From contig NZ_JAAXKX010000007.1 in assembly GCF_012276755.1 (NCBI RefSeq), positions 70,317-102,316 of the forward strand: a stretch of DNA of 32,000 nucleotides, written 5' to 3'. The notes beneath the pieces are model-generated. The model worked only from the letters and a program-made list of their open reading frames with translations. It did not search any database and was not told the DNA's origin. Position numbers and translations under genes: made by a program. Below are positions 4,109 through 16,978 of the stretch, in pieces. This DNA is from Marichromatium bheemlicum (GTDB lineage: Bacteria > Pseudomonadota > Gammaproteobacteria > Chromatiales > Chromatiaceae). How positions within the stretch are numbered: position 1 is the stretch's first letter; each line of letters opens with the position of its first letter.

Positions 4109-4377
4109 GGTCGGGTGATCTCTAAAAAGCTATTTCCGAAGCGGATGAGTCCGGGGCGGACCGGGTGTCTCGACGCGCTGTATGGCGTCGCGACGGGGTC
4201 TCGGGGCGGTCCTGGTGACGGCCCGCGAACAGGGTGTGAACAGCCTCCAGACTACCACAAGATCGCGGCGCCCAAACAGGGTGCCGGCGGTCGTGGTCGG
4301 TCTCTTCTCCGATTCCTAGTTGGTGGCGTTCGGGTCGGGCCCCAAGGGTGTTCGCGCACGCCCGGCGCCGGGGCCGG

Positions 4378-4983
4378 TCAGTCGCCGAGCAGCTCGGTGA
4401 GCTTGGGTTGCTGGCGTGGTTGGCGTTGGCGCTCGGCGGCGATGATCGCCGTCAGGGTGGTGAGTGCGTCCTCGAAGTCGCCGTTGACCACCAGGTAATC
4501 GTATTCGTCGCCGTGGATCATCTCGTCGCGTGCCTGGGCCATGCGTTCGGCGATCACGGTGTCGCTGTCGGTGCCGCGTCCACGCAGCCGGCGTTCGAGT
4601 TCGGTGATCGAGGGCGGTAGCACGAAGATGCTCACCGCCTCGGGGATACGAGCACGGACCTGACGCGCGCCCTGCCAATCGATCTCAAGGATCAGGTCCT
4701 CGCCGGCCTCGAGGCGCGCGCGCACGTCCTGCTCGCGGGTGCCGTAGAGGTTGCCGAAGACCTCGGCCGACTCGAGGAAGTCGCCGGCGGCGATCGCCTG
4801 CTCGAAGCGTTCGCGGGCGAGGAAGTGATAGTGGACGCCGTCGCGCTCGCCGGTGCGCGGCGCGCGGGTGGTGCAGGAGACCGAGAGCGCGAGCGCGCGA
4901 TCACGCTCGAGGAGCGCCCGGACCAGACTGGTCTTGCCGGCGCCGGAGGGCGCCGAGACGATGAAGAGGATGCCTTGTCCCAT
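4378..4983 (-). CDS. gmk: Guanylate kinase
   Basis: P-loop SAPSGAGKTS directly after the internal ATG at 4983 (MGQGILFIVSAPSGAGKTS). The product is 201 aa. The longer ORF to 5094 adds an Arg/Gly-rich non-homologous extension and is rejected. Confidence 0.93.
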   Translation of the reverse strand: MGQGILFIVSAPSGAGKTSLVRALLERDRALALSVSCTTRAPRTGERDGVHYHFLARERFEQAIAAGDFLESAEVFGNLYGTREQDVRARLEAGEDLILEIDWQGARQVRARIPEAVSIFVLPPSITELERRLRGRGTDSDTVIAERMAQARDEMIHGDEYDYLVVNGDFEDALTTLTAIIAAERQRQPRQQPKLTELLGD

Positions 4984-5131
4984 TACGGGTGTGCCTTCGA
5001 CGGTGGGGGTCCCGCACGCTCGCCGACGGTGTCTGGTGCCGGCGCTGCGGCCGCGAGAACAACGACCCCGGGGCGCGATGCCGGACGCGTCCACGCGTGA
5101 ATCGAGGCGCGCGAGACGGAAAAAAGGCGAG

Positions 5132-5161
5132 ATTATACGACCCTGCGGGCGCTTGCGTCAG
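5132..5161 (-). promoter_or_regulatory. Candidate sigma-70 promoter for gmk-rpoZ-spoT (CTGACG-N18-TATAAT on minus strand)
   Basis: There is a perfect TATAAT hexamer (plus-strand attata, 5132-5137) in an otherwise GC-rich context. CTGACG (5156-5161) lies 18 nt upstream and overlaps the phnP stop codon. The site is about 150 nt upstream of the gmk ATG. Confidence 0.35.
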
Positions 5162-6000
5162 GTTACAAGTCGCGCCTCAGGGGGCGAGCGGGTCGCATCG
5201 GCGTGTCGCGAGGGGCGGTGCGTTGTCCGCACCTGGCCATCGCCCGCCAGGCGCAGGCCGTCGGCGGCGACCCGGACGCCCTCGGGCAACGCGTTGCCTG
5301 GCTGACGCAACCAGTCGTCGAGGTGATGGCCGACATGGGTCAGCCACAACCGGGGGGCGCCACTCGCGCGCCATAGCGCCAGCGCGGTGGTGAGGTCGTT
5401 GTGATTGCGTGGCGGCCGTGGCTGTGGCGGGACGTGGCAGTCGAGCACCAGGGCGGCGACCGGGTGTCGCTGTAGGTGGCGCAGCGTCGTTTCGGGCAGG
5501 CCGGCGGTATCGGTCAGGTAGGCGAGCCGATGGCGCTGATGGCGCAGCACATAGCCCTGGGTCGGGCGGGAGTGGCGCAACGGCAGCGGGGTGATGTGCA
5601 GGTCGCCGAGGTCGTGTTCGACGAAGGGCGCGAGGGGGGGGCGGAAGTCGAGTACCCCGGGGTGCTTGTAGAGATCATCGGCGCCGATCGGGTCGTCGGG
5701 GCGGTGCACCGGGATGCGGGGCGTGCGTTCGCACCAGCGCAGCGGGAACAGCCCCTGGACGTGATCCATGTGGAAGTGGGTGAGGAGAATGCGACGGATC
5801 TGGCCGAAGGCGAAGCGGCGTGCGAGGTCGCCGACACCGGCATCGATCAGGGTCACGCCGGTCTCGGTGTGAACGGCCACACAGGCGCTCTCGCGCCGGC
5901 GCGCGGGGTCAGCGCTGGCGCGCCGGCAGGCCGGGCAGTCGCATCCCCACACCGGGACGCCGGCGGCGTCACCCGTGCCGATGAACTCGATCTCAAACAT
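5158..6000 (-). CDS. phnP: Phosphoribosyl 1,2-cyclic phosphate phosphodiesterase PhnP (metallo-beta-lactamase fold)
   Basis: MBL motif HFHMDH and the N-terminal Cys cluster GCDCPAC typical of PhnP. It is the last gene of the phn cluster. The ATG at 6000 overlaps the phnN stop by 8 nt. The upstream ORF extension to 6159 is rejected. Confidence 0.88.
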   Translation of the reverse strand: MFEIEFIGTGDAAGVPVWGCDCPACRRASADPARRRESACVAVHTETGVTLIDAGVGDLARRFAFGQIRRILLTHFHMDHVQGLFPLRWCERTPRIPVHRPDDPIGADDLYKHPGVLDFRPPLAPFVEHDLGDLHITPLPLRHSRPTQGYVLRHQRHRLAYLTDTAGLPETTLRHLQRHPVAALVLDCHVPPQPRPPRNHNDLTTALALWRASGAPRLWLTHVGHHLDDWLRQPGNALPEGVRVAADGLRLAGDGQVRTTHRPSRHADATRSPPEARLVT

Positions 6001-6562
6001 CGGCGGGTGCTCCGAGATGGGCGAGCAACAGGCGCTGTAGCCGTGTGAGCGCGGCGTCGAGGTCGCCGTTGTTGTCGATTCGCAGCGTCTGTCCCCGTCG
6101 TTCGCGTTCGAGTCGGGCGTTGCGGGCGAGACGGGCGCTGATCGCCGCCTCGTCCTCACGTCCGCGCGCGCGCAGTCGTTGTCGCAGGCGTTGCGGGTCG
6201 ACCCGCACCTCCACCGGCATCAGTCGTTCGCCGAAGCAGCGCCGGGCCTGTTCGAGGTGGGCACGCGAGCCGTTGGCGATTACCGACTGGCCGCTGTCCA
6301 GCCAGGCGTCGAGTTCGATACCGAGGGCGTAGCGGCAACCGTTGGCCTGCCAGTGCAGCTTGAACAGCCCACGCTCGAGCCGTTGCGCGAATTCCTCGGC
6401 GCTCAGCGCGATGTGGTTCTCGCCGCCGGCGTGCCAGTCGCGGGTGATGTAACGGTGGGCGAAGAGCAGCGGCGCGCGCCCGCCGAGGCGCTGGCGCAGC
6501 CCCTGGAGCAGGGCGTCCTTGCCGCTGCCCGAGGGGCCGATCAGGTAGAACAGCGTGGCCAT
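5993..6562 (-). CDS. phnN: Ribose 1,5-bisphosphate phosphokinase PhnN
   Basis: MATLFYLIGPSGSGKDALL P-loop, 189 aa, guanylate-kinase-like fold. It sits between phnM and phnP. The longer ORF to 6880 is rejected. Confidence 0.88.
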   Translation of the reverse strand: MATLFYLIGPSGSGKDALLQGLRQRLGGRAPLLFAHRYITRDWHAGGENHIALSAEEFAQRLERGLFKLHWQANGCRYALGIELDAWLDSGQSVIANGSRAHLEQARRCFGERLMPVEVRVDPQRLRQRLRARGREDEAAISARLARNARLERERRGQTLRIDNNGDLDAALTRLQRLLLAHLGAPADV

Positions 6563-6569
6563 GATGTGC

Positions 6570-7706
6570 TCAGAACACCCGCTCGCCGTCCTTCCACACC
6601 CGATGGATGTGGGCGTGGTCGTCGATCGCCTCGCACCACACCAGATCGGCCTTGAGCCCGGGGGCGATACGACCGCGATCGCGTAGGCCGGCAGCGGCGG
6701 CGGGGCGGGTGCTGACCAGCGCGGTGGCGGCGGCGAGGTCGTAGTCGTTGCGCGCGTCGCCGGCGAGCTTGAAGACCGCATCGAGCAGGCTCGCCGGGTA
6801 ATAGTCGCTGGAGAGGATGTCGAGCAAGCCCGCGCTGGCGAGGGTGTGGGCGGCGATGTTGCCCGAGTGTGAGCCGCCACGCACCACGTTGGGCGCGCCC
6901 ATCAGCACGGCGATGCCGCGGTCGTGGGAGGCGCGTGCGGCCTCGTGGGTGGTGGGGAACTCGGCGATGACCATGCCCAGGGTGTGCGACTCCTCGACAT
7001 GTGCGCTGGTGGCGTCGTCGTGGCTCGCCAGCGGGATGCCGTGCTCGCGGCAACTGGCACAGATCGCTTGGCGATAACGGTCGCTGTAGCGGCGACTGGC
7101 CTCGCTCTGACGGGCGACGAAGGTCTCGAGTTCGGCGTCGCTGAGCTTGTACTTGCCCTGGTAGTACTCGCGGTACTTGACCGGGTCGGCGAACTGGCGC
7201 TGGCCGGGTGAGTGATCCATCACCGAGACCAGCTGCGGCGGGTGCTCGACGAGTAGTCGCTCGAAGTTCTCCAGGGTGTCGGCATGGCTGACCTCGCAGC
7301 GCAGGTGCAGCAGGTGCTCGGCGCGGGTCAGGCCGCGGCGGCGGCACGTCTCGAGCGCCTCGGCCATGCGGGTCAGGTTGCCGACGCGCTCGCTGCGCTC
7401 GATCACGTCGCCGATGGCGATGGCATCGAAGACCGTGGTGATGCCGGCGCTGATCATCTGCGCGTCGTGTACCTTGAACGCCTGCGTCCCCGGCCAGGCG
7501 ACCCCGGGGCGCGGGGTGAAGTGCTTCTCCATGTTGTCGGTGTGCAGCTCGATCAGCCCCGGCAGCAGGTAGCCCCCGGCGCAGTCGAGCGCCCCGGGCA
7601 GATTGGTGGTGGCGCTGTCGAGCGCGCTGATGCGACCGTCGCGGATCTCCAGCGAGCCGTGGATGATGTCGTCGTCGAGGACGATGCGGGCGTTGGTCAG
7701 AATCAC
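6570..7706 (-). CDS. phnM: Alpha-D-ribose 1-methylphosphonate 5-triphosphate diphosphatase PhnM (amidohydrolase)
   Basis: [12 protein letters not shown]...[18 protein letters not shown] amidohydrolase metal motif. The product is 378 aa, the same size as I recall for E. coli PhnM. The GTG start at 7706 forms a GTGA overlap with the phnL stop. The 576-aa ORF N-terminal part is in-frame read-through of phnL antisense space and is rejected. Confidence 0.88.
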
Positions 7707-8413
7707 GAGGCCATCCTGTCGGTTGCGGCTTGGGGTTGGACGTGGAAGATCCGGTCGGCGACGGCGTCGCGCACCTCGCTGTCGTGGAAGATGCCGACGA
7801 TGGCGGTGCCGCGATCGCGCGCTTGGCCGATCAGCTCGACCACGGTGGCGGCGTTGCGCCGGTCGAGCGAGGCGGTGGGCTCGTCGAGCAGCAGGATCGG
7901 GTAGTCGACGATGAAGCCGCGGGCGATGTTGACGCGTTGTTGTTCGCCGCCGGAGAAGGTCCCGGGCGGTAGCGACCACAGCCGCTGCGGGATGTGCAGC
8001 CGTTCGAGCAGCTCGCCGGCACGGGCCTGGGCCTGGGCGGTCTCGACACCGCGCAGGCGCAGTGGCTCGGCGACTACCTCCAGGGTCGGGACCCGGGGGA
8101 TGACGCGCAGGAACTGGCTGACATAACCGATGGTCTCGCGGCGGATCTGCAGCAGCGTCTGGCTGTCGGCGCCGCTCAGCGCCACCAGCTCGCCGCGATG
8201 ACGGACATGGATGCTGCCGCTGGTGGGCAGATAGTTGGCATAGAGCGAGCGCAGCAGGGTGCTCTTGCCCGAGCCGCTCTCGCCGAACAGTACCGTGCAC
8301 TCACCGCGCTTGGCGGTGAAGTCGATGCCGCGGAACACGGGCAGCTGGGTGCCGCCCTGGTTGTGCAGGGTGAAGACCTTGGTCAGTCCCCGCACCTCGA
8401 TCATGGTCTGCAT
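7703..8413 (-). CDS. phnL: C-P lyase system ATP-binding subunit PhnL
   Basis: ABC ATPase motifs [21 protein letters not shown] and [15 protein letters not shown] lies 8 nt upstream of the ATG at 8413. It sits between phnK and phnM. Confidence 0.9.
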
Positions 8414-8429
8414 CGGATCGTCTCCGGGG

Positions 8430-9206
8430 TCAGGCGGTGAGGACGGAGGACACCAGCAGCTGGGTGTAGGCGTGCTGGGGGTCGTCGAGTACCTGGTCGG
8501 TGAGGCCGCTCTCGACGACCTGGCTGCGGCGCATCACGATCAGCCGCTGGGCGAGCAGTCGTGCCACCGCCAGGTCGTGGGTGACGATCACCACCGCCAG
8601 CCCGAGCTCGGTGACCAGCTGGCGCAGCAGGTCGAGCAGCCGCGCCTGGACCGAGACATCGAGCCCGCCGGTGGGCTCGTCCATGAACACCAGACGCGGA
8701 TGGGTGACCAGGTTGCGGGCGATCTGCAGCCGTTGCTGCATGCCGCCGGAGTAGGTCGTCGGTCGATCGTCGATCCGCCCGACGTCGAGCTCGACGTCAC
8801 GCATCCAGCGCGCGGCGGTGGCGCGTAGCTGGCCGTAGTGGCGCTCGCCGGTGGCCATCAGTCGCTCGCCGATGTTGGCCCCGCCGGAGACGCCCATGCG
8901 CAGCCCGTCGCGGGCGTGCTGGTGGACGATGCCCCACTCGGTGCGTTGCAGTTGACGCTGACGCGCCTCGCTGAGCTGGTAGAGATCGACGGTCTCGCCC
9001 GCGTCGGTGCGATAGAGGATCGATCCCGAGTCCGGCGCCAGTCGCGCCGACAGGCAGCTCAGCAGGGTCGACTTACCGGAGCCGGACTCGCCGACGATGC
9101 CGAGCACCTCACCGGGATAGAGATCGAAGCTGACCTCGCGACAGCCCTTGCCCGGGGCGTGGAGCTTGGTGAGCTGGCGCACCTGCAGCAGTGGTTCGCG
9201 GTTCAT
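8430..9206 (-). CDS. phnK: C-P lyase system ATP-binding protein PhnK
   Basis: ABC ATPase motifs [21 protein letters not shown] and [14 protein letters not shown] start/stop overlap with phnJ. Confidence 0.9.
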
Positions 9207-10063
9207 GCCTTCTCCTCCTGGCGTGCCAGGCGTGTGCGGCAGTAGTCGGTGTCGGAGCAGATGAAGGTGTGGCCACCCTGGTCGTCCAGGATCACCTCAT
9301 CGAGGAAGCTGTCGGTAGCGCCGCAGATGGCGCAGCACTGGTCCCAGCGCTGGACCTCGAAGGGGTGGTCGGCGAAGTCGAGGCTACGCACCTCGGTGTA
9401 GGGCGGGACGGCATAGATGCGTTTCTCGCGCCCGGCGCCGAACAGCTGCAGCGCCGGTGAGTGGTCCATCTTCGGGTTGTCGAACTTGGGGATCGGCGAG
9501 GGATCCATCACATAGCGCCCGTTTACCCGTACCGGATAGGCGTAGGAGGTGGCGATGTGACCGAATTGGGCGATGTCCTCATAAAGCTTGATGTGCATCA
9601 CCCCGTAATCCTCGAGCGCGTGCATCTTGCGCGTCTCCACCTCGCTCGGTTCGATGAAGCGCAACGGCTCCGGGATGGGGACCTGATAGACCAGGATCTG
9701 GTCCTCGTGCAGCGGGGTCTCGGGGATGCGGTGCCGGGTCTGGATCAGCGTCGCCTGCTCGGTGCGCTCGGTGGTCGCGACCCCGGTGAGATCCCGGAAG
9801 AAGGCGCGGATGCTGACCGCGTTGGTGGTGTCGTCGGCGCCCTGGTCGATCACCTTGAGGCAGTCGTCACGACCGATGATCGCGGCGCTCACCTGCATGC
9901 CGCCGGTGCCCCAGCCGTAGGGCATCGGCATCTCGCGACCGCCGAAGGGCACCTGATAACCGGGGATGGCCACCGCCTTGAGCAGGGCGCGCCGGATCAT
10001 GCCCTTGGTCTGCTCGTCGAGATAGGCGAAGTTGTAGCCGGCACGGGTGGCGGGTGCGCTCAT
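9203..10063 (-). CDS. phnJ: Alpha-D-ribose 1-methylphosphonate 5-phosphate C-P lyase PhnJ (radical SAM-type)
   Basis: The highly conserved PhnJ N-terminus YNFAYLDEQTKGMIRRALLKAVAIPGYQVPFGGREMPMPYGWGTGG. C-terminal Cys cluster CCAICG...ICSDTDYC. The ATG at 10063 forms an ATGA overlap with the phnI stop. The ORF extension to 10387 is rejected. Confidence 0.93.
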   Translation of the reverse strand: MSAPATRAGYNFAYLDEQTKGMIRRALLKAVAIPGYQVPFGGREMPMPYGWGTGGMQVSAAIIGRDDCLKVIDQGADDTTNAVSIRAFFRDLTGVATTERTEQATLIQTRHRIPETPLHEDQILVYQVPIPEPLRFIEPSEVETRKMHALEDYGVMHIKLYEDIAQFGHIATSYAYPVRVNGRYVMDPSPIPKFDNPKMDHSPALQLFGAGREKRIYAVPPYTEVRSLDFADHPFEVQRWDQCCAICGATDSFLDEVILDDQGGHTFICSDTDYCRTRLARQEEKA

Positions 10064-11169
10064 GCCGGATCCTCCTCGCCGGCGCTGTCGGCAGCGGCGC
10101 GGATACGGCGCAGCAGCTCCAGTTCGGACTGGAAGTCGACATAGTGCGGCAGCTTGAGATGGGAGACGAAGCCGGCGGCCTCGACGTTGTCGCAGTGCGA
10201 GAGCACGAACTCCTCCTGTTGTGCCGGCGAGACCGCGGTCTCGCCATGGTCCTCGGCCTGCAGGGCGCGATCGACCAGCGCCATGGCCATCGCCTTGCGC
10301 TCGCACTGGCCGAGTCCGAGCCCGTAGCCGCGGGTGAAACGCACCTCGCCGTCGTCGTGCCGGGTGAAGCCGTTGACCGTCTCGCACTCGGTGACCTGGA
10401 GGGTGCCGATGGTGATCGGGAAGCCCAGTTCCTCGGGGACGATCTCGACCTCGACCTCACCGATGCGGATCTCGCCGGCGAAGGGGTGGTTGCGGCCGTA
10501 GCCGCGCTGGGTGGAATAGCCCAACGCCAGCAGGAAGCCCTCGTCACCGCGCACCAGCGCCTGCAGTCGGGCGCTGCGGTCACAGGGATAGGTCGGCGGG
10601 TCCTGGGTGATGTCGGTCGGCTCGTCGCCGCGGTCGTGCTCGCCGATCATCAGCCCCTCGCGCTCGAGCAGCTCCAGCACGCGCGGGGTCGGTGGCGGCT
10701 GCGACGCTGCTGGTGCGGTGTCGACCGTCTCCGACGGCGGTGCCGGTGCGGCGGGTTCACCCTCGGCCAGCAGGCTGAAGTCGAGCAGGCGGTGGGTGTA
10801 GTCGAAGGTCGGGCCGAGCACTTGTCCTCCGGGCAGATCCTTGTAGGTCGCCGAGATCCGCCGCTCGATGTGCATGTGCGTGGTGTCGATCGGCTCACTG
10901 CTGGTGAAGCGCGGCAAGGTGGTGCGATAGGCACGCAGCAGGAAGATCGCCTCGACCAGATCGCCGGCGGCCTGCTTGATCGCCAGCGCCGCCAGCTCGC
11001 GGTCGTAGACCGAGCCCTCGGTCATCACCCGGTCGACGGCCAGCGCCAGTTGTTGGTCAATCTGCGCGACCCCGATCTCGGGGGTCTCGGGCGCGCCTCG
11101 GCGCCGTTTGGCGAGCAGCGTGTGGGCCGCGGCGATGGCACGCTCCCCGCCTTTGACTGCGACATACAT
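10060..11169 (-). CDS. phnI: RPnTP synthase subunit PhnI
   Basis: MYVAVKGGERAIAAAHTLL...AIKQAAGDLVEAIFLLRAYRTTLPRF is the typical PhnI N-terminus. The product is 369 aa. Its start overlaps the phnH stop by 1 nt (TGATG). The ORF extension to 11583 is rejected. Confidence 0.9.
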   Translation of the reverse strand: MYVAVKGGERAIAAAHTLLAKRRRGAPETPEIGVAQIDQQLALAVDRVMTEGSVYDRELAALAIKQAAGDLVEAIFLLRAYRTTLPRFTSSEPIDTTHMHIERRISATYKDLPGGQVLGPTFDYTHRLLDFSLLAEGEPAAPAPPSETVDTAPAASQPPPTPRVLELLEREGLMIGEHDRGDEPTDITQDPPTYPCDRSARLQALVRGDEGFLLALGYSTQRGYGRNHPFAGEIRIGEVEVEIVPEELGFPITIGTLQVTECETVNGFTRHDDGEVRFTRGYGLGLGQCERKAMAMALVDRALQAEDHGETAVSPAQQEEFVLSHCDNVEAAGFVSHLKLPHYVDFQSELELLRRIRAAADSAGEEDPA

Positions 11170-11774
11170 CAGTTCACCTCCACACGGGTCGTGCGTGGGA
11201 TGGCCGCGACCTGATCCTGGGCCAGCAGCACCAGGTCGAGACCGAGTGGGAAGGGGTGGGGCCGTTCGACCAGATAGCGCGTCAGCCGGGTGTCGAGCCC
11301 GGTCACGCCCAACTGGCGCGATGTGGCGATGCCCGGCCCGGACAGGCGCAGCGCGGTGGCCTGCTCGGTGGCGGTGGTGGCCAGCGCCTCGACCTGGACG
11401 AGCAGGGTGCAGCTGCGATCGGGGTACTCGGCGGTGCCGGCACGCAGCGTCATCAGCTCGGGGAGTTCGCCGGCACGGGCAAGCACGAAGTCGGCCGCAG
11501 CGGGGTCGACGACGATCCGGCAACCGCTGTGGAAGCCGAGGTTGGCGCGGACCGTCTCGGTGTCGAGCGCACCGCCGAGCCATAGGGTCGTGGTGGCGTC
11601 GAGCAGTGTCTGGCAGGCGCTGAAGGTCGCAGGGGTGAGCGTGTCGAGCGCGGTGGCGGCGGCCAATGGCCGGATCACGCCCGGCTCACTCATCACCTTG
11701 AGCAGGTGGCGGAAGGCCTGTTGGCTGTCCTCGACCGGGTTGGCGAAGCCGGCCTGCAGCTGTGGTTGCGACAT
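11169..11774 (-). CDS. phnH: RPnTP synthase subunit PhnH
   Basis: 201-aa product in the PhnH position. The N-terminus FANPVEDSQQAFRHLLKVMSEPG resembles the PhnH family. The start lies 3 nt after the phnG stop. Confidence 0.85.
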   Translation of the reverse strand: MSQPQLQAGFANPVEDSQQAFRHLLKVMSEPGVIRPLAAATALDTLTPATFSACQTLLDATTTLWLGGALDTETVRANLGFHSGCRIVVDPAAADFVLARAGELPELMTLRAGTAEYPDRSCTLLVQVEALATTATEQATALRLSGPGIATSRQLGVTGLDTRLTRYLVERPHPFPLGLDLVLLAQDQVAAIPRTTRVEVN

Positions 11775-11777
11775 CGG

Positions 11778-12227
11778 TCAATCCTCTCCTCGGACCAGGG
11801 TGAAGAAGTCCACCCGAGTGGTCTCGACGTCGCGCTGCTCGGTGTGACGCGCGCGCTGTCGTTGTCGTTCCAGGGGTTCGATCACCCGCTGGTGCAGGTG
11901 GGCGTCGAACTGCGGGGTCTGCAGCAGGGCGTCGAGCTGTGCGGCGCGCAGTGCATGGGGCTTGCTGCGACCGGCGACCTGGCCGTGACCAGTGGTGCCG
12001 AAGTGCGAGCGCACGACACAGCGCGTCAGGGTCATGTCGCCGAGATTGAAGGCGGCGCCGGTGCCACCGGCGCGTGCGCGAACCTGGACGAGACCGATCT
12101 CGGGGGCACGGATCAGCTCGAACTCGGCATCGGCGATGGCGGGCTCGGAGAGTTGCAGCAGGGTGTCGGTCGGCGCCTGGGCGAGTACCGACATCCAGTG
12201 TCGGCGGCGCGCGATGTCAGGGGTCAT
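11778..12227 (-). CDS. phnG: RPnTP synthase subunit PhnG
   Basis: 149-aa product in the PhnG position (ELIRAPEIGLVQVRARAGGTGAAFNLGDMTLTRC). The ATG at 12227 forms an ATGA overlap with the phnF stop. The ORF extension to 12524 is rejected. Confidence 0.85.
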   Translation of the reverse strand: MTPDIARRRHWMSVLAQAPTDTLLQLSEPAIADAEFELIRAPEIGLVQVRARAGGTGAAFNLGDMTLTRCVVRSHFGTTGHGQVAGRSKPHALRAAQLDALLQTPQFDAHLHQRVIEPLERQRQRARHTEQRDVETTRVDFFTLVRGED

Positions 12228-12922
12228 GGCTTGGGCTCCATGCTGTATTCGAAGAGATCGCTGCGGCTGCGCGAGATCGAGTACTCGCGCAATCGGTCGC
12301 TGTGGCGGCAGTAATTGCGGGTATGGACCTCCATCACTGGGGTGCCGCGACCGATGGCGAGCTGGGCGCGCTCGTCGAGCGTCGGCATGCGCGCGCGCAG
12401 TCGGGTGGTGCCGCGGCGCAGCTCGATGCCGTAATGCTCGCGCAGGAAGGCGTGCAATGAGGGGCCGGTGAAGGCCGCGAGCGCGTCCTCGGGCAGGTCG
12501 AACAGGAAGTGGCGGATCAGACATACCGGCTCACCCTCGATCAGGCGGCGGGTGTGCAGCTCCAGCACTCGGGTACTTGGGCTGAGGTCGAGTCGTCCGG
12601 CCAGCGCCACGGGCAGTTCGGTGGCGCGCCAGCCCTGGATCTCGGTGGCCAGGCCGAGCCCGAGCTGGTCGAGGTTGTGGGAGAAGGCGGCGTGATCGTG
12701 CAGGGCATAGTCGATCGGGGTCTGCACGATGCGGCAGCCAAGACCCTGGTAGCGGCGCACCAAGCCGTCGTGCACCAGCTCGTCGATGGCGCGACGGATG
12801 GTGTGGCGGTTGACCGCGAAGCGCTCGGCGAGCTGGCCCTCGGAGGGCAGCAGCTCACCGGCGCGGTAGTGGCCGCGGATCTCGTCGTGCAACTGGGCTG
12901 CGATGTCGCGGTATCGGCTCAT
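12224..12922 (-). CDS. phnF: GntR/HutC-family phosphonate regulon repressor PhnF
   Basis: Winged-helix LPSEGQLAERFAVNRHTIRRAIDELVHDGLV plus a UTRA-like C-terminal domain. It sits between phnE and phnG. The ATG at 12922 is preferred over the TTG at 12934. Confidence 0.88.
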   Translation of the reverse strand: MSRYRDIAAQLHDEIRGHYRAGELLPSEGQLAERFAVNRHTIRRAIDELVHDGLVRRYQGLGCRIVQTPIDYALHDHAAFSHNLDQLGLGLATEIQGWRATELPVALAGRLDLSPSTRVLELHTRRLIEGEPVCLIRHFLFDLPEDALAAFTGPSLHAFLREHYGIELRRGTTRLRARMPTLDERAQLAIGRGTPVMEVHTRNYCRHSDRLREYSISRSRSDLFEYSMEPKP

Positions 12923-12934
12923 TTGTCTATACAA
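12923..12934 (-). promoter_or_regulatory. Candidate PhnF (HutC-type) operator, TTGTATAGACAA on minus strand, abutting the phnF ATG
   Basis: It contains the GT-N-TA-N-AC core expected for HutC-subfamily GntR regulators. It shares the 11-mer TGT(A/C)TAGACAA with the phnC promoter palindrome at 15711-15720. Confidence 0.5.
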
Positions 12935-12944
12935 GTTGCGGGTG

Positions 12945-13739
12945 TCAGATGAAGGCCTTGCGCAGCTGCTGCGAGAGCAGGTCGGTGAGGGTCACGCAGG
13001 CGATGATCACCAGCATCACCGCGCAGGTCTGCTGGAACTGGAAGCCGCGGATGCTCTCCCACAGGATCACGCCGATGCCGCCGGCGCCGACCATGCCGAC
13101 CACCGTGGCCGAGCGCACGTTGGACTCGAAACGATAGAGCGAGTAGGAGATCCACAGCGGCAGTACCTGGGGGATGACGCCATAGACGATCTCCTCGAGC
13201 GGGTTGGCGCCGGTGGCGCGCACCCCCTCGACCGGGCGTGGGTCGATCGCCTCGACGGCCTCGGAGAAGAGCTTGGCGAGTACCCCGGTGGTATGGACGA
13301 ACAGCGCCAGCACGCCGGCGAAGGGTCCCAACCCCACCGCGACGACGAACAGCATCGCGAACACCATCTCGTTGATCGCGCGGGTGGCGTCCATCAATCG
13401 GCGCACCGGCTGGTGGACCCAGACCGGGGTCAGGTTCTCGGCGCTGAGCAGCCCGAAGGGGATCGAGAGCAGGATCGAGAGCACCGTGCCCCAGAGGGCG
13501 ATGTGCAGCGTCACCAGCATCTCCTCGAGGTAGTAGCCGATGTCGCTGAAGTCTGGCGGGAAGAAGTCGGCGGCGAACTCGAGCATGCTGCCGCCCTCGC
13601 GGATCAGTAGCAGCGGGTCGATCTCCGCGCCCTCCCAACCCCACCCCAGCAGCAGGAAGAGGACGGCCCAGCCGAGTGCTGCCAGCCAGTTGAACGGCTT
13701 GCGCGCAACGGGCGTGTTGGTTGCTGTCGATTGGATCAT
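12945..13739 (-). CDS. phnE: Phosphonate ABC transporter permease PhnE
   Basis: Multi-span membrane protein with an ABC permease EAA-type loop ([33 protein letters not shown]). The ATG at 13739 gives MIQSTATN. The ORF extension to 14027 is rejected. Confidence 0.9.
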
Positions 13740-13794
13740 GGTGCGCTCTTGATGACGGAAGGGAGGCGGGCGACCCGTGGCCGCCGCGCCGGTT

Positions 13795-14799
13795 TCAGTG
13801 GGGGGCCGCCTCGAGCGCCTCGATGCGCTGCTCGAGTGCGGCGAGCCGGGCATCGAGCGCGCGGCGGCGCTCGGCCTTGGCGGCCGCGGAGAGTCGGGTG
13901 TCGGCCTCGAGTCGGAGACGCTCCGCAAACAGCGTGAGCTGGCGTATCGGCAACAACTGCGCGTTGCTGGAGGGACGGAAGGGTGCCCACTGCAGGTCGG
14001 TGAGCACCGCCTGTTCGTGCGGGTCACCGGTGGTGCCGTAGGTCATGAAGAACGCACGGATCCGTTGCTTGGCCGACTCGGGCAGGTTCTTGCGCCAGAC
14101 GATCGGGTCGGCCGGGATCAGCGGCGAGCGCCAGATCACCTTCACCTGGTCGTACTTGTCCGGAAAGGTCTCGCGGATCCGGGCGATGGTCTCGGTGTTG
14201 TTGGTGGCGACATCGAGCTGACCATTGGCGACGGCGAGGAAGTTGGCCTCGTGGCTGGCGTTGGTCATACGCTTGAAGACCTGCTTCGCGTCGACACCGT
14301 TGCGGGCGAAGACGTAGTAGCTCGGCACCAGATAACCGGAGGTGGAGTTGGGGTCGCCATTGCCGAAGCTCAGGGTCTCGGCATGGGCGAGCACGTCCTC
14401 GACTGAGTTGAGCCGGTCGTCGTCGGCCGCGGCGATCAGTACGCTCCAGTACCCGGGGTTGCCTGAGGCATCGACGGTCTGGGCGAAGACCTCGCCGCCG
14501 GCGCGGTCGACCGCCTCCATCGCCGCCTTGTTGCCGTACCAGGCGACATCGACTTTGTCGAAGCGCATCGCCTGGACGATGCCGGCGTAATCGGAGGCGA
14601 AGAAGGGTTCGACCTCGATGCCGAGCTGCGCGGACATGTCGGTGAGGAAGGGCTCCCAGACGGTCTTGAGGTTCTGTGACGACTCGGTGGAGATGATGCC
14701 GAAGCTGAGGGTCTCCAGCGGCTCGGCCTGACTGGCCGGGGCGCCGAGCAGCAGGGTGCCGAGGGCCAGCCCCGCGGTCAGTGATGACAGGGTGTTCAT
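13795..14799 (-). CDS. phnD: Phosphonate ABC transporter periplasmic binding protein PhnD
   Basis: Signal peptide [25 protein letters not shown], then PhnD-like SFGIISTES...[14 protein letters not shown]...YWSVLI. The C-terminus is a coiled tail. ATG at 14799. Confidence 0.9.
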
Positions 14800-14821
14800 G
14801 GGCGTTGGGTCCGTGTGCGCG

Positions 14822-15649
14822 TCAAACCGGGTTGAGCTCGAGGCCACTGGCCTGACGGGGGCGTGAGGGGATCAATGGTCGCTCGGCGGTCTCGTGGGCG
14901 GTGCCGTAGAGGGTGGCGAGGGTGGTGTCGTCGAGGGCGCTGATGGGACCGTTGAAGAAGACCTCGCCATCACGCAGGGCGATGGCGCGTCGACAGTACT
15001 GGCGGGCGTAGTCGACCTGGTGCAGGGTGACGATGACGGTGATGCCGCGCTCGCGGTTGATCCGCTGCAAGGTCTCCATCACCAGCCGCGAGGACTCGGG
15101 ATCGAGTGAGGCGATGGGCTCATCGGCGAGGATGACCTCGGCCTGCTGCATCAACGCCCGGGCGATGGCGACACGCTGTTGCTGGCCACCGGAGAGCGTC
15201 GAGGCGCGTTTCATGGCGTGCTCGCGCAACCCGACCAGTTCCAGCGCCTCGAGCGCCAGACGGCGCTCGGCATCGGTGAACCAGCCCGGCAGGCTGCGCC
15301 ACACTGGCACGCGACCGAGTGCCCCGATCAGCACATTGGTCTGGACGCTGAGCCGGTTGATTAGGTTGAACTGCTGGAAGACGTGGCCGATGCGGGCGCG
15401 GGTGCGACGGATGTCGCTGGCGGCACGGCCGTGTTGCTGCACCTTGCGCCCCAGGACCTCGACCAGCGAGGCAGGGCCGCGGTCGGCCAGGGTCAGCCCC
15501 GAGAGGTGACGCATCAGCGTCGATTTACCGGAACCGGACGAGCCGATCAGGGCCAACATCTCACCCTGCTCGACCTCGACGGAGATACCCTTGAGCACCG
15601 GCGCCCCGGTGAAGCTCTTCTGCAGTGCGTTGACCTTGATGGCTGACAT
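14822..15649 (-). CDS. phnC: Phosphonate ABC transporter ATP-binding protein PhnC
   Basis: [12 protein letters not shown] Walker A, LSGGQQQRVAIA signature and ILADEPIASLD Walker B. The ATG at 15649 is preceded by AGGACAGGA. It is the first gene of the operon. Confidence 0.92.
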   Translation of the reverse strand: MSAIKVNALQKSFTGAPVLKGISVEVEQGEMLALIGSSGSGKSTLMRHLSGLTLADRGPASLVEVLGRKVQQHGRAASDIRRTRARIGHVFQQFNLINRLSVQTNVLIGALGRVPVWRSLPGWFTDAERRLALEALELVGLREHAMKRASTLSGGQQQRVAIARALMQQAEVILADEPIASLDPESSRLVMETLQRINRERGITVIVTLHQVDYARQYCRRAIALRDGEVFFNGPISALDDTTLATLYGTAHETAERPLIPSRPRQASGLELNPV

Positions 15650-15708
15650 GCGACAGTCCTGTCCTGGTGTGACCTGCCGCAAGCTTAGGGAGACGGGGTT
15701 ACATCAGG

Positions 15709-15722
15709 GTTGTCTAGACATG
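15709..15722 (-). promoter_or_regulatory. Candidate PhnF operator: perfect 10-bp palindrome TGTCTAGACA (15711-15720) in the phnC promoter
   Basis: Perfect palindrome with a GT-N-TA-N-AC core, about 60-70 nt upstream of the phnC ATG. It matches 11 of 14 positions with the phnE/phnF junction site. Confidence 0.55.
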
Positions 15723-15748
15723 TCGGTTCATTGAAGGTTTGTTGACGG
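15720..15748 (-). promoter_or_regulatory. Pho-box-like element: three 7-bp direct repeats at 11-bp spacing (CCGTCAA-CAAA-CCTTCAA-TGAA-CCGACAT, minus strand)
   Basis: The repeats match the CTGTCAT PhoB half-site at 5/7, 4/7 and 5/7 positions, with A-rich 4-bp spacers. The position upstream of phnC matches the known PhoB dependence of the E. coli phn promoter. Confidence 0.45.
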
Positions 15749-15761
15749 TCGTGTTGCTAGA

Positions 15762-15838
15762 TTTTAGCCAACAGCCGCCAGCCGCTAGCTTTCAGTCGCC
15801 AGTTGCCAGCTTTTAGCCATCGGCCGTCGACCGTCAGC
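15762..15838. repeat. Degenerate heptad array, 11 units, consensus NNNCAGC
   Basis: Read in a 7-nt register the units are: ttttagc caacagc cgccagc cgctagc tttcagt cgccagt tgccagc ttttagc catcggc cgtcgac cgtcagc. The units are reverse-complement types of the downstream perfect repeats. cgccagt is the exact reverse complement of ACTGGCG, and caacagc matches the reverse complement of GCTGTTA at 6/7. Confidence 0.7.
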
Positions 15839-15956
15839 GACCTGTGGGGGGCGGTACTCGACGGCCCCGTATCGCTCATTCGGTTCTGGGGGCTCGTCAT
15901 CGGTGGCCGAGGGCGCGGACCTGTGCCATCGATGACCTGTTGGCTGTCTACTGGGG

Positions 15957-16033
15957 GCTGTTAGCTGTTAGCTGTTAGCTGTTAGCTGTTAGCTGTTAGC
16001 TGTTAGCTGTTAGCTGTTAGCTGTTAGCTGTTA
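15957..16033. repeat. Perfect tandem heptanucleotide repeat (GCTGTTA)x11
   Basis: Counted directly: 11 identical units covering 77 bp. Three degenerate in-register units precede it (cctgttg gctgtct actgggg, 15936-15956). Confidence 0.98.
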
Positions 16034-16034
16034 G

Positions 16035-16087
16035 CTGGCGACTGGCGACTGGCGACTGGCGACTGGCGACTGGCGACTGGCGACTGG
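16035..16087. repeat. Perfect tandem heptanucleotide repeat (CTGGCGA)x7 plus partial CTGG
   Basis: Counted directly. It abuts the previous array in the same 7-nt register (phased as GCTGGCG + ACTGGCG x6 + ACTGGGA). It ends 24 nt from the yicC stop codon. Confidence 0.98.
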
Positions 16088-16111
16088 GAGGAGAGCAACG
16101 CCCTCGGTCGC

Positions 16112-16978
16112 TCACTCGATGTTCTGGATCTGCTCGCGCATCTGCTCGATCAGCACCTTCATGTCGACCACGGTGCGGGTGATGGTGACGTCGGAGGACT
16201 TGGAGCCGATGGTGTTGGTCTCGCGGTTGAGCTCCTGCATCAGGAAGTCGAGGCGTCGGCCGATCGGTTCGTCGCGTTCGAGCACGCTGCGCACCTCGGC
16301 GATGTGGGCGGTGAGACGATCCATCTCCTCGTCGACGTCGAGTTTGGTGGCGACGAGCACGATCTCCTGTTCGAGCCTGCCCTCGTCGAGCTCCTCGCGC
16401 AGCTCGGTGAGGCGTTCGGTGAGGCGGGCGCGGGTCTCGGCGATGACCTCGGGCATGCGCTCGCGCACCTGCTCGACACAGACCTCAAGCCGGTCGCAGC
16501 GCTCGCGGATCAGCTGTGCCAGGCGCGCGCCCTCGCGCTCGCGGGTGGTGACCAGGCTGTCGAGGGCCTGATCGAGCAGCGCCATCGCGGCGGCGCCGAC
16601 CTGATCGAGGTCGCGCTCCTGTTCATGGATCACGCCGGGCCAGCGCAGCAGTTCGAAGGGGGTGGGACGGGTATCGCGGCCACTGAGCGCGGCCAGGGCG
16701 TCGCCGGCGGCGAGCAACTGCTCGACCAGTGGGCGGTTGAGTTCGAGTGCGACCGGCGTGCCGGCGCCGGGGTTGAAGCGCAGCGCGCAGTCGACCTTGC
16801 CGCGGTGCAACCGTTCGCCGAGTCGTGCGCGGATGCGGGTGTCGAGGCCGCGCAGCTCCTCGGGCAGGCGCAGTAGCGGCTCGAGATAGCGGTGGTTGAC
16901 GGTCTTGAGCTCCCAGGTGAGTTCGCCCAGTGCGCTCTGGCTGGATTCTCGGGCGAAGGCGGTCATGCTCTTGATCAT
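16112..16978 (-). CDS. yicC: YicC-family stress-induced protein / endoribonuclease
   Basis: MIKSMTAFARES...WELKTVNHRYLE N-terminus and the conserved C-terminal FLMQELNRETNTIGSKS motif. The product is 288 aa. Confidence 0.92.
   Translation of the reverse strand: MIKSMTAFARESSQSALGELTWELKTVNHRYLEPLLRLPEELRGLDTRIRARLGERLHRGKVDCALRFNPGAGTPVALELNRPLVEQLLAAGDALAALSGRDTRPTPFELLRWPGVIHEQERDLDQVGAAAMALLDQALDSLVTTREREGARLAQLIRERCDRLEVCVEQVRERMPEVIAETRARLTERLTELREELDEGRLEQEIVLVATKLDVDEEMDRLTAHIAEVRSVLERDEPIGRRLDFLMQELNRETNTIGSKSSDVTITRTVVDMKVLIEQMREQIQNIE

Follow-up and report, generated by a model that had tools for sequence, protein, structure and literature searches.

Opposed heptanucleotide arrays downstream of yicC in Marichromatium bheemlicum belong to a recurrent kind of bacterial and phage hairpin microsatellite

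Intergenic arrays of tandem heptanucleotides, opposed pairs included, have been described in several bacteria (PMC4692102, PMC2700814, PMC4679880), and the first-pass annotation of the locus treated here, which knew of no described element of this form, needs correction on that point. In Xanthomonas, Rehm et al. (2015) described intergenic (GGGAATC)n or (GGGANTN)n arrays of 2-26 units, either perfect or heterogeneous around a conserved core, which start on average 28 nt past the upstream ORF and lie mostly between co-directional genes (PMC4692102). Convergent pairs, in which a stem-loop or a cruciform is possible, account for 70 of 186 arrays, and array length varies among closely related species; the authors could identify no regulatory role for these repeats (PMC4692102). 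The same paper cites the STRR sequences of cyanobacteria, three tandem heptanucleotides of Calothrix PCC 7601 (PMC4692102). In Geobacter metallireducens, Aklujkar et al. (2009) found class 3 repeats of five tandem MTYCTGA units, arranged as opposite-strand pairs (eight pairs per genome) and annotated as putative global-regulator sites, possibly for IHF or HU (PMC2700814).

Direct TAACTGA repeats have been reported by MacGregor (2015) from marine Beggiatoaceae, Thiocystis violascens, cyanobacteria and Bacteroidetes (PMC4679880). The repeats, 2-6 copies long in 'Maribeggiatoa', lie directly upstream of start codons, with one indirect repeat among 170 sets, and S1, Csp or CsrA-type proteins were proposed to bind them (PMC4679880). 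At the hmw locus of Haemophilus influenzae, the heptameric simple sequence repeat (SSR) (ATCTTTC)n forms one arm of a long hairpin that is cleaved by RNase III; added repeats leave the fold unchanged, and changes in copy number need transcription, the hairpin and RNase III (PMC12721329). A full-text literature search with the repeat strings of the present locus returned no paper.

The element lies between yicC and phnC in a 32,000-nt stretch of Marichromatium bheemlicum DNA, the window hereafter. The features of the region, in window coordinates, are as follows.

5095-16111, minus strand: insertion of about 11 kb that separates yicC from gmk (gene calls), with the repeat element and the phn promoter followed by phnC, D, E ... 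H ... K, L, M, N, P
14822-15649, minus strand: phnC, first gene of the phosphonate cluster (TIGR02315, 5.9e-90)
15700-15752, minus strand: phn promoter/operator block, separate from the repeat element (alignment to other phnC upstream regions)
15762-15838, minus strand: decayed opposite arm of 11 heptads, NNNCAGY on the plus strand and RCUGNNN in the yicC sense (shuffles, TRF)
15839-15935, no strand assigned: unique 97-nt spacer between the arms, with GACCTGT three times and CTGGGGGCT twice
15936-15956, minus strand: three degenerate heptads sharing the register of the perfect arrays (in the yicC sense CCCCAGU, AGACAGC, CAACAGG)
15957-16033, minus strand: loop-proximal block 2 of the yicC-proximal arm, perfect (UAACAGC)11 in the yicC sense, (GCTGTTA)11 on the plus strand (TRF)
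16034-16089, minus strand: block 1 of the yicC-proximal arm, perfect UCCCAGU (CGCCAGU)6 CGCCAGC in the yicC sense (TRF and in-register printout)
16090-16111, minus strand: 22-nt linker from the yicC stop codon to the first heptad (inverted-repeat search, printout)
16112-16978, minus strand: yicC, endoribonuclease of the YicC/YloC family (TIGR00255 over its full length, E 1.2e-90)

The yicC-proximal arm is a single run of 22 heptads in one register (15936-16089), within which the in-register printout shows perfect (GCTGTTA)11 and (ACTGGCG)6-7. On the plus strand the order is CCTGTTG, GCTGTCT, ACTGGGG, eleven GCTGTTA, GCTGGCG, six ACTGGCG and ACTGGGA; [AG]CTG recurs 21 times at strict 7-nt steps from 15943, while the variable triplets are TTA, GCG, TTG, TCT, GGG and GGA. 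TRF finds (GCTGTTA)11.6 at 15957-16037 (score 162) and (CTGGCGA)7.6 at 16035-16087 (score 106), both with 100% matches and zero indels. The arm thus has the many head-to-tail 7-nt units of a heptanucleotide microsatellite, and the printout and TRF together bear out the earlier description of about 19 consecutive heptads in unbroken register, preceded by three degenerate in-register units. In block 2 the tetramer AGCU occurs once per 7 nt. Arrays as perfect as these probably reflect recent slippage and, presumably, an unstable copy number, with probable length polymorphism of the VNTR type.

The opposite arm is decayed. Of its 11 in-phase heptads, nine end in YAGY (maximum four in 2000 dinucleotide shuffles), and when it is aligned locally with the right arrays in reverse complement the score is 25, whereas shuffles give 7.9 +/- 1.3 and never exceed 13; the array of eleven reverse-complement heptads noted earlier is therefore real. 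Units such as CGCCAGT, CGCCAGC, TGCCAGC and CAACAGC are recognisable, the variable triplets being TTT, CAA, CGC, TGC, CAT and CGT, and TRF detects a period of 21 at 15772-15818. As had been noticed, ACTGGCG has its exact reverse complement in one unit (CGCCAGT at 15797), and another (CAACAGC at 15769) shares six of its seven positions with that of GCTGTTA. The spacer repeats were also counted correctly in the first-pass annotation. The spacer contains a local 17-nt imperfect hairpin (15896-15912 with 15920-15936), and no second copy of it (15839-15935) was found in the window or in any fetched locus. In the linker, CCGAGGGCG forms a perfect 9-nt inverted repeat with 15907-15915. The whole element measures 328 bp (15762-16089), its G+C content is 56-61% and that of the flanks 65-70%. 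It begins 22 nt past the yicC stop codon, not 24 nt as first estimated.

The arrays lie, as proposed, between yicC and the phn promoter, yicC and phnC both being on the minus strand; phnD and then phnE follow phnC, whose product is identical to M. bheemlicum PhnC (100% over 275 aa). The element is bounded by the yicC stop codon and the phnC start codon, and no ORF of at least 40 aa crosses the arrays. The earlier conclusion that the region is non-coding therefore stands, but not the statement that all frames of both arrays hit stop codons: (CTGGCGA)n alone has zero stops in all frames of both strands, and it is the GCTGTTA block that closes every frame, with TAG on one strand and TAA on the other.

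Downstream, the block at 15700-15752 contains three Pho-box-like boxes in 11-bp phase (CCGTCAA, CCTTCAA and CCGACAT) and a palindrome, TGTCTAGACA, and is conserved upstream of phnC in Aestuariirhabdus and Marinobacterium. From the known forms of Pho boxes and GntR operators, these would be PhoB and PhnF-type sites. The distance of 210-370 bp to the Pho-box-like element given earlier applies to the perfect arrays; the decayed array is only about 10 nt from the Pho-box-like repeats (15720-15752). A promoter scan found no sigma-70 consensus, the sequence upstream of the arrays included, and no intrinsic terminator (a G+C-rich stem-loop with a U-run) was detected on either strand of 15400-16400. 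The 3' arm of the element is followed by GCUAAAAUCUAGCAAC. A comparison with Rfam 15 families gave three chance-level matches (E-values 0.25-0.28), with bit scores far below gathering.

The phn cluster is a horizontal acquisition that was inserted into the normally tight yicC-gmk junction. In M. gracile, whose YicC is 93% identical to that of the window, yicC is followed by a 227-nt spacer and gmk, and both the phn genes and the arrays are absent. Among 72 related loci, gmk lies directly downstream of yicC in 40, and none carries phnC. The nearest PhnC outside Marichromatium, from an Aestuariirhabdus isolate, is 75% identical, and no arrays were found upstream of phnC in the two closest retrievable phn clusters (Aestuariirhabdus and Marinobacterium). 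The repeat element forms the yicC-proximal edge of the insertion, upstream of the conserved promoter block; the far end of the cluster is a 63-nt phnP-gmk spacer without a comparable array. Alignment of the M. gracile yicC-gmk spacer yields a weak 13-nt match beside yicC, in the linker (16090-16111), which is too short to define the junction position precisely, and, at the opposite end of the insertion, the promoter region of gmk.

Wider searches gave the following picture. Exact-protein look-ups with the YicC and PhnC of the window found no contig with the same locus; a YicC scan of a genome collection returned no Marichromatium among the matches listed, the best being 69% identical; and a metagenome scan with the unique flank CTGGGAGGAGAGCAACGCCCTC had zero matches. 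A search for further arrays, recommended in the first-pass annotation, was negative in the window and in M. gracile (one locus in 32 kb and none in 20.9 kb, respectively) and positive in contigs of other organisms.

A long imperfect hairpin, suggested earlier from the opposed orientation, is predicted on both strands. Its long-range helix comprises 46 predicted pairs (mean pair probability 0.85) between 16034-16089 and 15766-15821. The full fold reaches -155.5 kcal/mol, compared with -122.7 for the two halves folded apart, and the z-scores of the two strands against shuffles are -7.6 and -8.0, values that are inflated because shuffling destroys any inverted repeat, functional or otherwise. The (GCTGTTA)11 block has no predicted partner in the other arm, 40 of its 41 paired nucleotides staying within the array.

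The window element belongs to a recurrent kind of hairpin microsatellite of bacteria and phages. We defined the class operationally as an (NNNCAGY)n arm and then, on the same strand and within 300 nt, an (RCTGNNN)n arm, a definition that includes the Geobacter class 3 sites. The window element follows this order, with the NNNCAGY arm at 15762-15838 and the RCTGNNN arm at 15936-16089. Like other members, it combines a fixed 4-nt core with three variable positions and lies between co-directional genes, close behind a stop codon. Its 97-nt gap falls within the class range of 1-292 nt and compares with a median of 24-30 nt among the matches listed. Similar anatomy is seen at four gammaproteobacterial loci (L112, L122, L125 and L129) and in GC-rich contigs L022 and L056, and metagenomic contigs L174, L169 and L153 have near-identical units in composite in-register arms. 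In phage-like contigs, most of the junctions inspected have such pairs filling the interval from a stop codon to the following Shine-Dalgarno sequence.

Core preference was judged from the architecture per locus among the matches listed, totals not being comparable. On this basis, the CAGT core gives 81 opposed pairs in 76 loci and CAGC 26 in 64, as against 1 in 70 for GACT, 3 in 49 for GTCA and 1 in 76 for GCAC. Also among the matches listed, heterogeneous arrays make up 76% of CAGT arrays, and the NNNCAGY-then-RCTGNNN order is found in 67 of 81 CAGT and 21 of 26 CAGC pairs. A strict polarity rule was considered and rejected: the excess of 88 over 19 pairs becomes much weaker when counted by contig, and the metagenomic (RCTGGCG)n pairs divide 8 to 5 (among the matches listed). 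The preferred arm order is thus a tendency only. A reading of the arrays as Chi sites was also dropped for the window, whose units do not contain the E. coli Chi octamer found in phage (GCTGGTG)n. Taken together, the observations suggest that opposed heptad arrays do not simply arise at random as microsatellites grow, but are tied to the CAGT/CAGC core and to the gap between stop codon and ribosome-binding site.

Microsatellites of period 7 are the dominant type in related genomes, with 21 arrays of at least four copies in 1.37 Mb, compared with 5, 3, 4 and 3 arrays for periods 6, 8, 9 and 12. In related contigs, copy number within the same heptad class differs in 3 of 11 same-locus groups (18 versus 12, 16 versus 12, and 6/14/18). 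The (RCTGGCG)n arrays are numerous in metagenomic contigs, at least as many as the matches listed; about 10% of those listed have an opposed partner within 400 nt, and solitary arrays are therefore the rule.

Given the array anatomy, the insertion context, membership of a recurrent class of pairs and the predicted fold, we regard the element, with slightly more than even confidence, as a slippage-prone heptad hairpin in the 3' region of yicC that, if active, would most likely work as an intercistronic RNA stem-loop for processing or insulation and not as a phase switch of phn. It is a hairpin microsatellite, an inverted pair of heterogeneous arrays, (NNNCAGY)n, spacer and (RCTGNNN)n, sharing the CAGY core. 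The yicC-proximal arm has recently expanded to (CGCCAGU)7 and (UAACAGC)11, most likely by strand slippage. Its position 22 nt past the stop codon suggests that the element is transcribed as yicC 3' untranslated region. In such a transcript, (CGCCAGU)7 and the decayed arm could form a helix of about 46 bp, closing a domain of about 250 nt that would display the unpaired (UAACAGC)11. The stem-loop could block 3' exonucleases or be cleaved by a double-strand RNase such as RNase III, and would uncouple yicC transcripts from the downstream Pho-regulated phn operon. In practical terms, the locus is a probable hypervariable marker that would be useful for strain typing in Marichromatium, and the element marks the boundary of the phosphonate (C-P lyase) cluster gained by horizontal transfer.

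It seems rather unlikely, although this is the rival account that survives best, that the element is a neutral by-product: slippage microsatellites without function, whose inversion arose from hairpin-promoted template switching or slippage, or from inverted duplication. Perfect blocks beside a decayed array present the classic picture of birth and decay, the (GCTGTTA)11 block is unpaired with the other arm, and the (RCTGGCG)n arrays are mostly solitary (among the matches listed). The class moreover shows no pair-specific covariation. In 109 pairs, the complementarity of variable triplets between partner arms is 0.29-0.31, compared with 0.42 for arms of other pairs at the same locus and 0.30 between loci; true arms are no more complementary than swapped ones, and covariation therefore gives no sign of selected pairing. 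The failure of the Xanthomonas study to identify a regulatory role points the same way (PMC4692102), and the same paper cites the hypothesis that an excess of heptamers results from the geometry of polymerase slippage (PMC4692102). However, opposed pairs are 10-100 times commoner for CAGT/CAGC than for composition-matched cores and have a preferred order (among the matches listed), the pairs of phage-like contigs fit exactly into the interval from a stop codon to the following ribosome-binding site, and the core is conserved while the three other positions vary, heterogeneity being the majority state of the listed CAGT arrays. These regularities of core, order and position make slippage alone a hard explanation.

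The conserved core could instead be read by a protein. HutP, for example, reads NAG triplets at 7-nt spacing. An iterated array might bind a nucleoid-associated protein or global regulator as DNA, or a multimeric HutP-like protein with one motif every 7 nt as RNA. In both the window and the class, the CAGY/RCTG core is kept at strict 7-nt spacing while the other positions vary; the absence of arm covariation fits motif reading better than a helix, and the unpaired (UAACAGC)11 would, in the predicted fold, be displayed in a loop. Binding proteins have been suggested both for the Geobacter MTYCTGA pairs (PMC2700814) and for TAACTGA (PMC4679880). Nevertheless, these Geobacter and Beggiatoaceae ideas are proposals only, no candidate protein is encoded beside the element, the hosts of the class are so diverse that one dedicated factor seems unlikely, and a single locus in 32 kb is unlike a regulon. 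Nor do the data favour, over the alternatives, the earlier suggestion that a 21-bp repeat of two helical turns would suit a protein-binding array. We therefore hold a protein-binding array to be improbable.

The position of the element exactly at the yicC-proximal boundary of the 11-kb insertion raises the question of whether it is a remnant of the arrival of the phn cluster, such as a mobile or MITE-like terminal structure or a recombination scar. Its G+C content, lower than that of the flanks, and the absence of other heptad arrays from the 32-kb window and from 20.9 kb of M. gracile would agree with this, and contig L056 has, at two places, a module of about 100 nt flanked by heptad arrays. 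However, the window contains no integrase, transposase or target-site duplication, the phnP-gmk end of the insertion has no comparable array, the spacer is single-copy in all data examined and the closest phn clusters are array-free upstream of phnC. A remnant of this type is quite doubtful.

A phase-variable regulator of phn, in which copy number would switch or tune phosphonate use as the upstream SSR does at hmw, is very improbable, and the link to phn regulation drawn in the first-pass annotation is accordingly unlikely. Hypermutable-looking arrays do lie upstream of phnC, and hmw shows that a heptameric SSR in a hairpin arm can set an expression level (PMC12721329). The precedent quoted earlier, slippage of an 8-bp repeat that switches phn in E. 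coli K-12, is factually correct (PMC6469041) but, being inside phnE, irrelevant to a mechanism here. The element ends at 15762, beyond the block at about 15700-15752, and thus lies wholly upstream of a promoter/operator block that is shared with array-free phnC genes of other genera; it is neither between promoter elements nor in the phn 5'UTR, and changes in its copy number can alter neither the promoter spacing nor that 5'UTR. Action on phn would be possible only through read-through from yicC. No sigma-70-like promoter was found upstream of the arrays.

That the copy numbers or the arrays come from mis-assembled low-complexity reads is extremely improbable: the 154-nt tract (15936-16089) is comparable in length to an ordinary short read and exact unit counts in the draft assembly may therefore be unreliable, but the register runs unbroken from one block into the other, unique sequence flanks the tract on either side and also makes up the decayed partner array, and equal units and lengths were assembled independently elsewhere, (GCTGTTA)11 in L028 and L035 and (ACTGGCG)15 in L201.

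A broader proposal can be formulated, which we consider unlikely as it stands. Opposed CAGY heptad arrays could together make up one widespread class of intercistronic RNA element under functional selection, uniting STRR, TAACTGA, the Geobacter class 3 sites and the elements at phage junctions; they would be read by a double-strand RNase or by a protein recognising cores spaced by 7 nt, and their copy number would change through transcription-coupled processing, as at hmw, and not by passive slippage. If this were true, the window element would act as the border that separates a housekeeping gene from an operon gained recently. The class links scattered reports from Xanthomonas, Geobacter, cyanobacteria, Beggiatoaceae and the hmw locus of Haemophilus, and if the pattern holds in a proper census it would deserve attention like that given to REP sequences and phage RNase III sites.

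Comparison with these systems shows what the slippage-prone hairpin preferred here shares with each of them. Like the Xanthomonas arrays, it is a 7-nt, intergenic and opposed repeat near the upstream ORF (22 nt in the window versus 28 nt in Xanthomonas). However, the Xanthomonas unit is G-rich and forms G-quadruplexes, whereas GCTGTTA and ACTGGCG have no G-tracts of three or more, and Xanthomonas has about 185 copies per genome, compared with one locus in 32 kb of the window and none in 21 kb of the sister species. With Geobacter class 3 it shares tandem CTG/CAG heptads on opposite strands at variable distance, which in Geobacter are multicopy and lie between genes of one operon, for example proB-proA. 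In contrast to the window, the Geobacter repeats have a fixed number of five units and long perfect expansions are not reported there.

The STRR sequences are likewise non-coding tandem heptads, with the units CCCCAGT, CAACAGT and TTGGTCA in Calothrix. The arrays of Nostoc PCC 7120 are GGGGA(C/T)T, of which GGGGACT is the reverse complement of AGTCCCC, that is, CCCCAGT in NNNCAGT form. The CCCCAGT unit occurs in the window as a single flanking heptad (ACTGGGG at 15950), and CAACAG(G/C) too is present only as single flanking heptads. The main units are instead TAACAGC and CGCCAGT, and the purple sulfur gammaproteobacterium Marichromatium is the host. In heterocystous cyanobacteria, STRR occur in highly dispersed form and serve for strain fingerprinting; the 32 kb of the window, in contrast, contain one locus and the 20.9 kb of M. 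gracile none, admittedly a small sample.

The TAACTGA repeats are also intergenic heptamers interrupted by related 7-mers, occur in a member of the Chromatiaceae and have been given a proposed post-transcriptional role; read on the complementary strand in the window register they become TATCAGT, of the NNNCAGT form. Unlike the window arrays, they are short, lie upstream of start codons and are almost never inverted. The hmw repeat differs in its unit (ATCTTTC) and in where it lies, past the promoter and within the 5'UTR of the gene whose expression it sets, whereas the window element occupies the 3' region of yicC and precedes the phn promoter block. Nevertheless, both are heptameric SSRs of at least 11 units that make up one arm of a long imperfect RNA hairpin with a non-repeat partner, in the window as predicted in silico. 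Of the systems compared, hmw offers the best experimental guide to the way an element of this type can work.

Judged on its sequence, the repeat element behind yicC (15762-16089) belongs to an already described sort of intergenic heptad repeat, here as an opposed pair with a CAGY core, (NNNCAGY)n and (RCTGNNN)n arrays facing each other across a loop. Its parts and the adjacent phn promoter block are as follows.

15762-15838: decayed left array, eleven in-phase heptads
15896-15936: local imperfect hairpin in the spacer, between both arrays; 17-nt arms GTCATCGGTGGCCGAGG / CCTGTGCCATCGATGAC
15957-16037: (GCTGTTA)11.6; Tandem Repeats Finder, 100% identity, 0 indels
16035-16087: (CTGGCGA)7.6; Tandem Repeats Finder, 100% identity, 0 indels
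15700-15752, minus strand: phnC upstream block; three 11-bp-phased boxes CCGTCAA, CCTTCAA, CCGACAT and palindrome TGTCTAGACA

The perfect right-hand arrays described in the first-pass annotation are borne out by Tandem Repeats Finder and by an in-register printout: 15936-16089 reads, in 7-nt steps, CCTGTTG, GCTGTCT, ACTGGGG, 11x GCTGTTA, GCTGGCG, 6x ACTGGCG, ACTGGGA. In this right-hand tract [AG]CTG appears 21 times, always exactly 7 nt apart. The left array is likewise a genuine decayed heptad array, as had been proposed, since YAGY ends nine of its 11 in-phase heptads (maximum four in 2000 dinucleotide shuffles) and a score of 25 (shuffles 7.9 +/- 1.3) is reached when it is aligned to the right arrays in reverse complement. 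The short spacer repeats are present as well, and the spacer hairpin has a predicted stem of ~12 bp on both strands, without a U-run after it. The element does start just behind the yicC stop, at 22 nt rather than 24. The tract is non-coding, no ORF of at least 40 aa being found across it; the statement that all frames of both arrays hit stop codons fails, since every frame of (CTGGCGA)n by itself is open and the GCTGTTA block is what makes the tract non-coding.

The minus-strand order in the window is spoT, gmk, phnP, N, M, L, K ... H ... E, D, C, repeat element, yicC. YicC is 93% identical to its M. gracile counterpart, and in that species a spacer of 227 nt separates yicC from gmk, rpoZ and spoT, with neither phn genes nor heptad arrays at the yicC-gmk locus. 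The immediate downstream neighbour of yicC is gmk, usually 8-100 nt away, in 40 of 72 loci from related gammaproteobacteria, and phnC is near yicC in none of the 72. Because this adjacency occurs without phn in M. gracile and related loci, the ~11-kb phn cluster (5095-16111) is, on gene order, an insertion into an otherwise tight junction. The repeat element occupies the yicC-proximal edge of this insertion, the other edge still shows the gmk promoter region, and the 32-kb window revealed no integrase or transposase. PhnC is 100% identical to a Marichromatium bheemlicum protein; its next best match is from an Aestuariirhabdus isolate (75% identity), and then come other gammaproteobacteria of marine origin, Amphritea and Marinobacterium among them. 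The upstream block CAAAC.GACATGTCTAGACAACC..GTGTAAC is common to the Aestuariirhabdus (L145) and Marinobacterium (L146) loci, where arrays upstream of phnC are absent. It is preceded by the three phased boxes, which are Pho-box-like, and the palindrome looks like a GntR/PhnF-type operator. A separate G+C-rich tandem repeat occurs near the 5' end of the spoT ORF (3637-3710; period 15-18, ~3.6 copies, 76% matches, with indels).

RNA folding predicts, for either strand, long-range pairing of the (CGCCAGU)7 block with the decayed arm; the z-scores, -7.6 and -8.0, are no evidence of selection, since an inverted repeat of any kind outscores its shuffles. The yicC-sense helix comprises 46 pairs (16078..15939 with 15821..15766; mean pair probability 0.85), and folding the two halves apart costs ~33 kcal/mol. 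The (UAACAGC)11 block finds partners solely within itself, via AGCU tetranucleotides. Consensus scans found no terminator-like U-run (15400-16400, both strands) and no sigma-70 promoter at the element, and Rfam gave no match there. In silico, the hairpin or cruciform suggested earlier is thus possible on both strands, and the suggestion of slippage is upheld by the perfection of the arrays.

Similar arrays are widespread. In 1.37 Mb around yicC from 80 gammaproteobacteria, microsatellites of period 7 far outnumber those of any other period, with 21 arrays of at least four copies (5, 3, 4 and 3 for periods 6, 8, 9 and 12), and opposed pairs occur in loci L112 (twice), L122, L125 and L129. Thiorhodococcus minor (L072, 19174-19218) carries the composite in-register array CTGTTAG (CCGTTAG)3 (CTGGTAG)2, its units 1-2 changes from the GCTGTTA and GCTGGCG of the window. 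The longest array of the sample is (GAGCAGT)38 (97% identity), ~9 kb downstream of yicC in a Chromatiaceae-like MAG (L073, 19725-19988). A metagenome scan for (RCTGGCG)4 gave at least 82 arrays of 4-23 units, mostly in 62-70% G+C DNA; among the matches listed, 10 of 82 are composite in one register and roughly a tenth face an opposed CAG-phase array no more than 400 nt away. Metagenomic L174, L169 and L153 match the anatomy of the window almost unit for unit.

Phage-like contigs show a recurrent layout at most gene junctions inspected: stop codon, (NNNCAGT)n, short loop, (ACTGNNN)n, Shine-Dalgarno sequence, ATG. In L014, L022, L327, L319, L306 and L297, units without a partner often make up the part of the 3' arm nearest the loop, and a complementary block lies distal to them.

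L014, 1170-5880: GC-rich contig with the junction layout
L022, 2840-12600: GC-rich contig with the junction layout
L056: GC-rich contig with the junction layout
L327, L319, L306, L297: ~60% G+C contigs with the junction layout

In L056 (74% G+C), CAG-type heptad arrays are followed at both 4256-4470 and 8873-9146 by a homologous ~100-nt module (GGTGGCGCGGGACCGAT.GGA.GGCGTGGGCGG ... GAACC.C.AAG.CGCGAAG), which suggests a dispersed repeat carrying heptad arrays. Arrays of (GCTGGTG)n, 6-22 units and often at contig ends, were seen in the viral contigs L002, L007, L009, L020, L024, L030, L038, L041, L045, L048, L050 and L057; with the next G added, each unit spells the Chi octamer of E. coli, GCTGGTGG, which makes the arrays tandem Chi sites. 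Their copy number differs across related viral contigs (18 vs 12; 6/14/18).

The viral collection was scanned for six-unit arrays with five fixed 4-nt cores; core totals are not comparable, and the comparison rests on per-locus architecture among the matches listed.

Opposite-strand array pairs within 300 nt, by core, among the matches listed
CAGT: 81 pairs, 76 loci
CAGC: 26 pairs, 64 loci
GACT (control): 1 pair, 70 loci
GTCA (control): 3 pairs, 49 loci
GCAC (control): 1 pair, 76 loci

Among these matches, 88/107 pairs with a CAGT or CAGC core have the order of the window, (NNNCAGY)n then (RCTGNNN)n, a bias that is weak when counted by contig, and the median gap between arms is 24-30 nt. Several dense contigs are probably related phages, and 'viral' contigs may include bacterial DNA. 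Related contigs differ in the copy number of long arrays of the CAGY class (18 vs 12, 16 vs 12, 6/14/18). Partner arms show no greater complementarity in their variable triplets than non-partner arms do. It seems rather doubtful that opposed arrays with a CAGY core are a single, selected class of intercistronic RNA element in bacteria and phages.

The reading somewhat favoured here is that the heptad element is slippage-prone, would be transcribed behind yicC and, if it matters at all, would act on yicC transcripts as an RNA stem-loop, by ending them, protecting them or being cleaved from them; such action is proposed to insulate the Pho-controlled phn operon. The main rival, a purely neutral by-product, is less probable and still a serious contender. 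That a protein reads the array is unlikely, and little probability attaches to a relic of the insertion event. Phase-variable control of phn is more improbable still and is disfavoured by position: the element ends at 15762, just upstream of the conserved phnC block, and so lies outside the phn promoter and 5'UTR, and the earlier link to phn control is not borne out. The phnE precedent was correctly cited but is an intragenic frameshift (PMC6469041) and has no bearing on the mechanism here. Exact unit counts should not be trusted in a draft assembly; that the arrays themselves are an assembly artefact is very improbable.

The first-pass annotation knew of no such element, a claim overturned by published intergenic heptad repeats. 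Heptamers are reported to be the long SSR that is over-represented in bacteria, and GGGGA(C/T)T arrays are described in Nostoc and three heptanucleotide families in Calothrix (works cited in PMC4692102). Xanthomonas genomes each hold ~185 (GGGAATC)n arrays, lying a mean 28 nt behind the upstream ORF; in X. campestris, convergent pairs hold 70/186, and lengths vary between species in a study that found no function (PMC4692102). In Geobacter metallireducens, five-unit MTYCTGA sites form eight opposite-strand pairs, one of them between proB and proA, and the annotation treats them as putative global-regulator sites (PMC2700814). TAACTGA arrays occur in Beggiatoaceae, Thiocystis and cyanobacteria (PMC4679880). 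The hmw array of H. influenzae is the one well-studied case among known heptad repeats: (ATCTTTC)n supplies one side of a long hairpin in the 5'UTR that RNase III cuts, and change in repeat number needs transcription, hairpin and RNase III, all three (PMC12721329).
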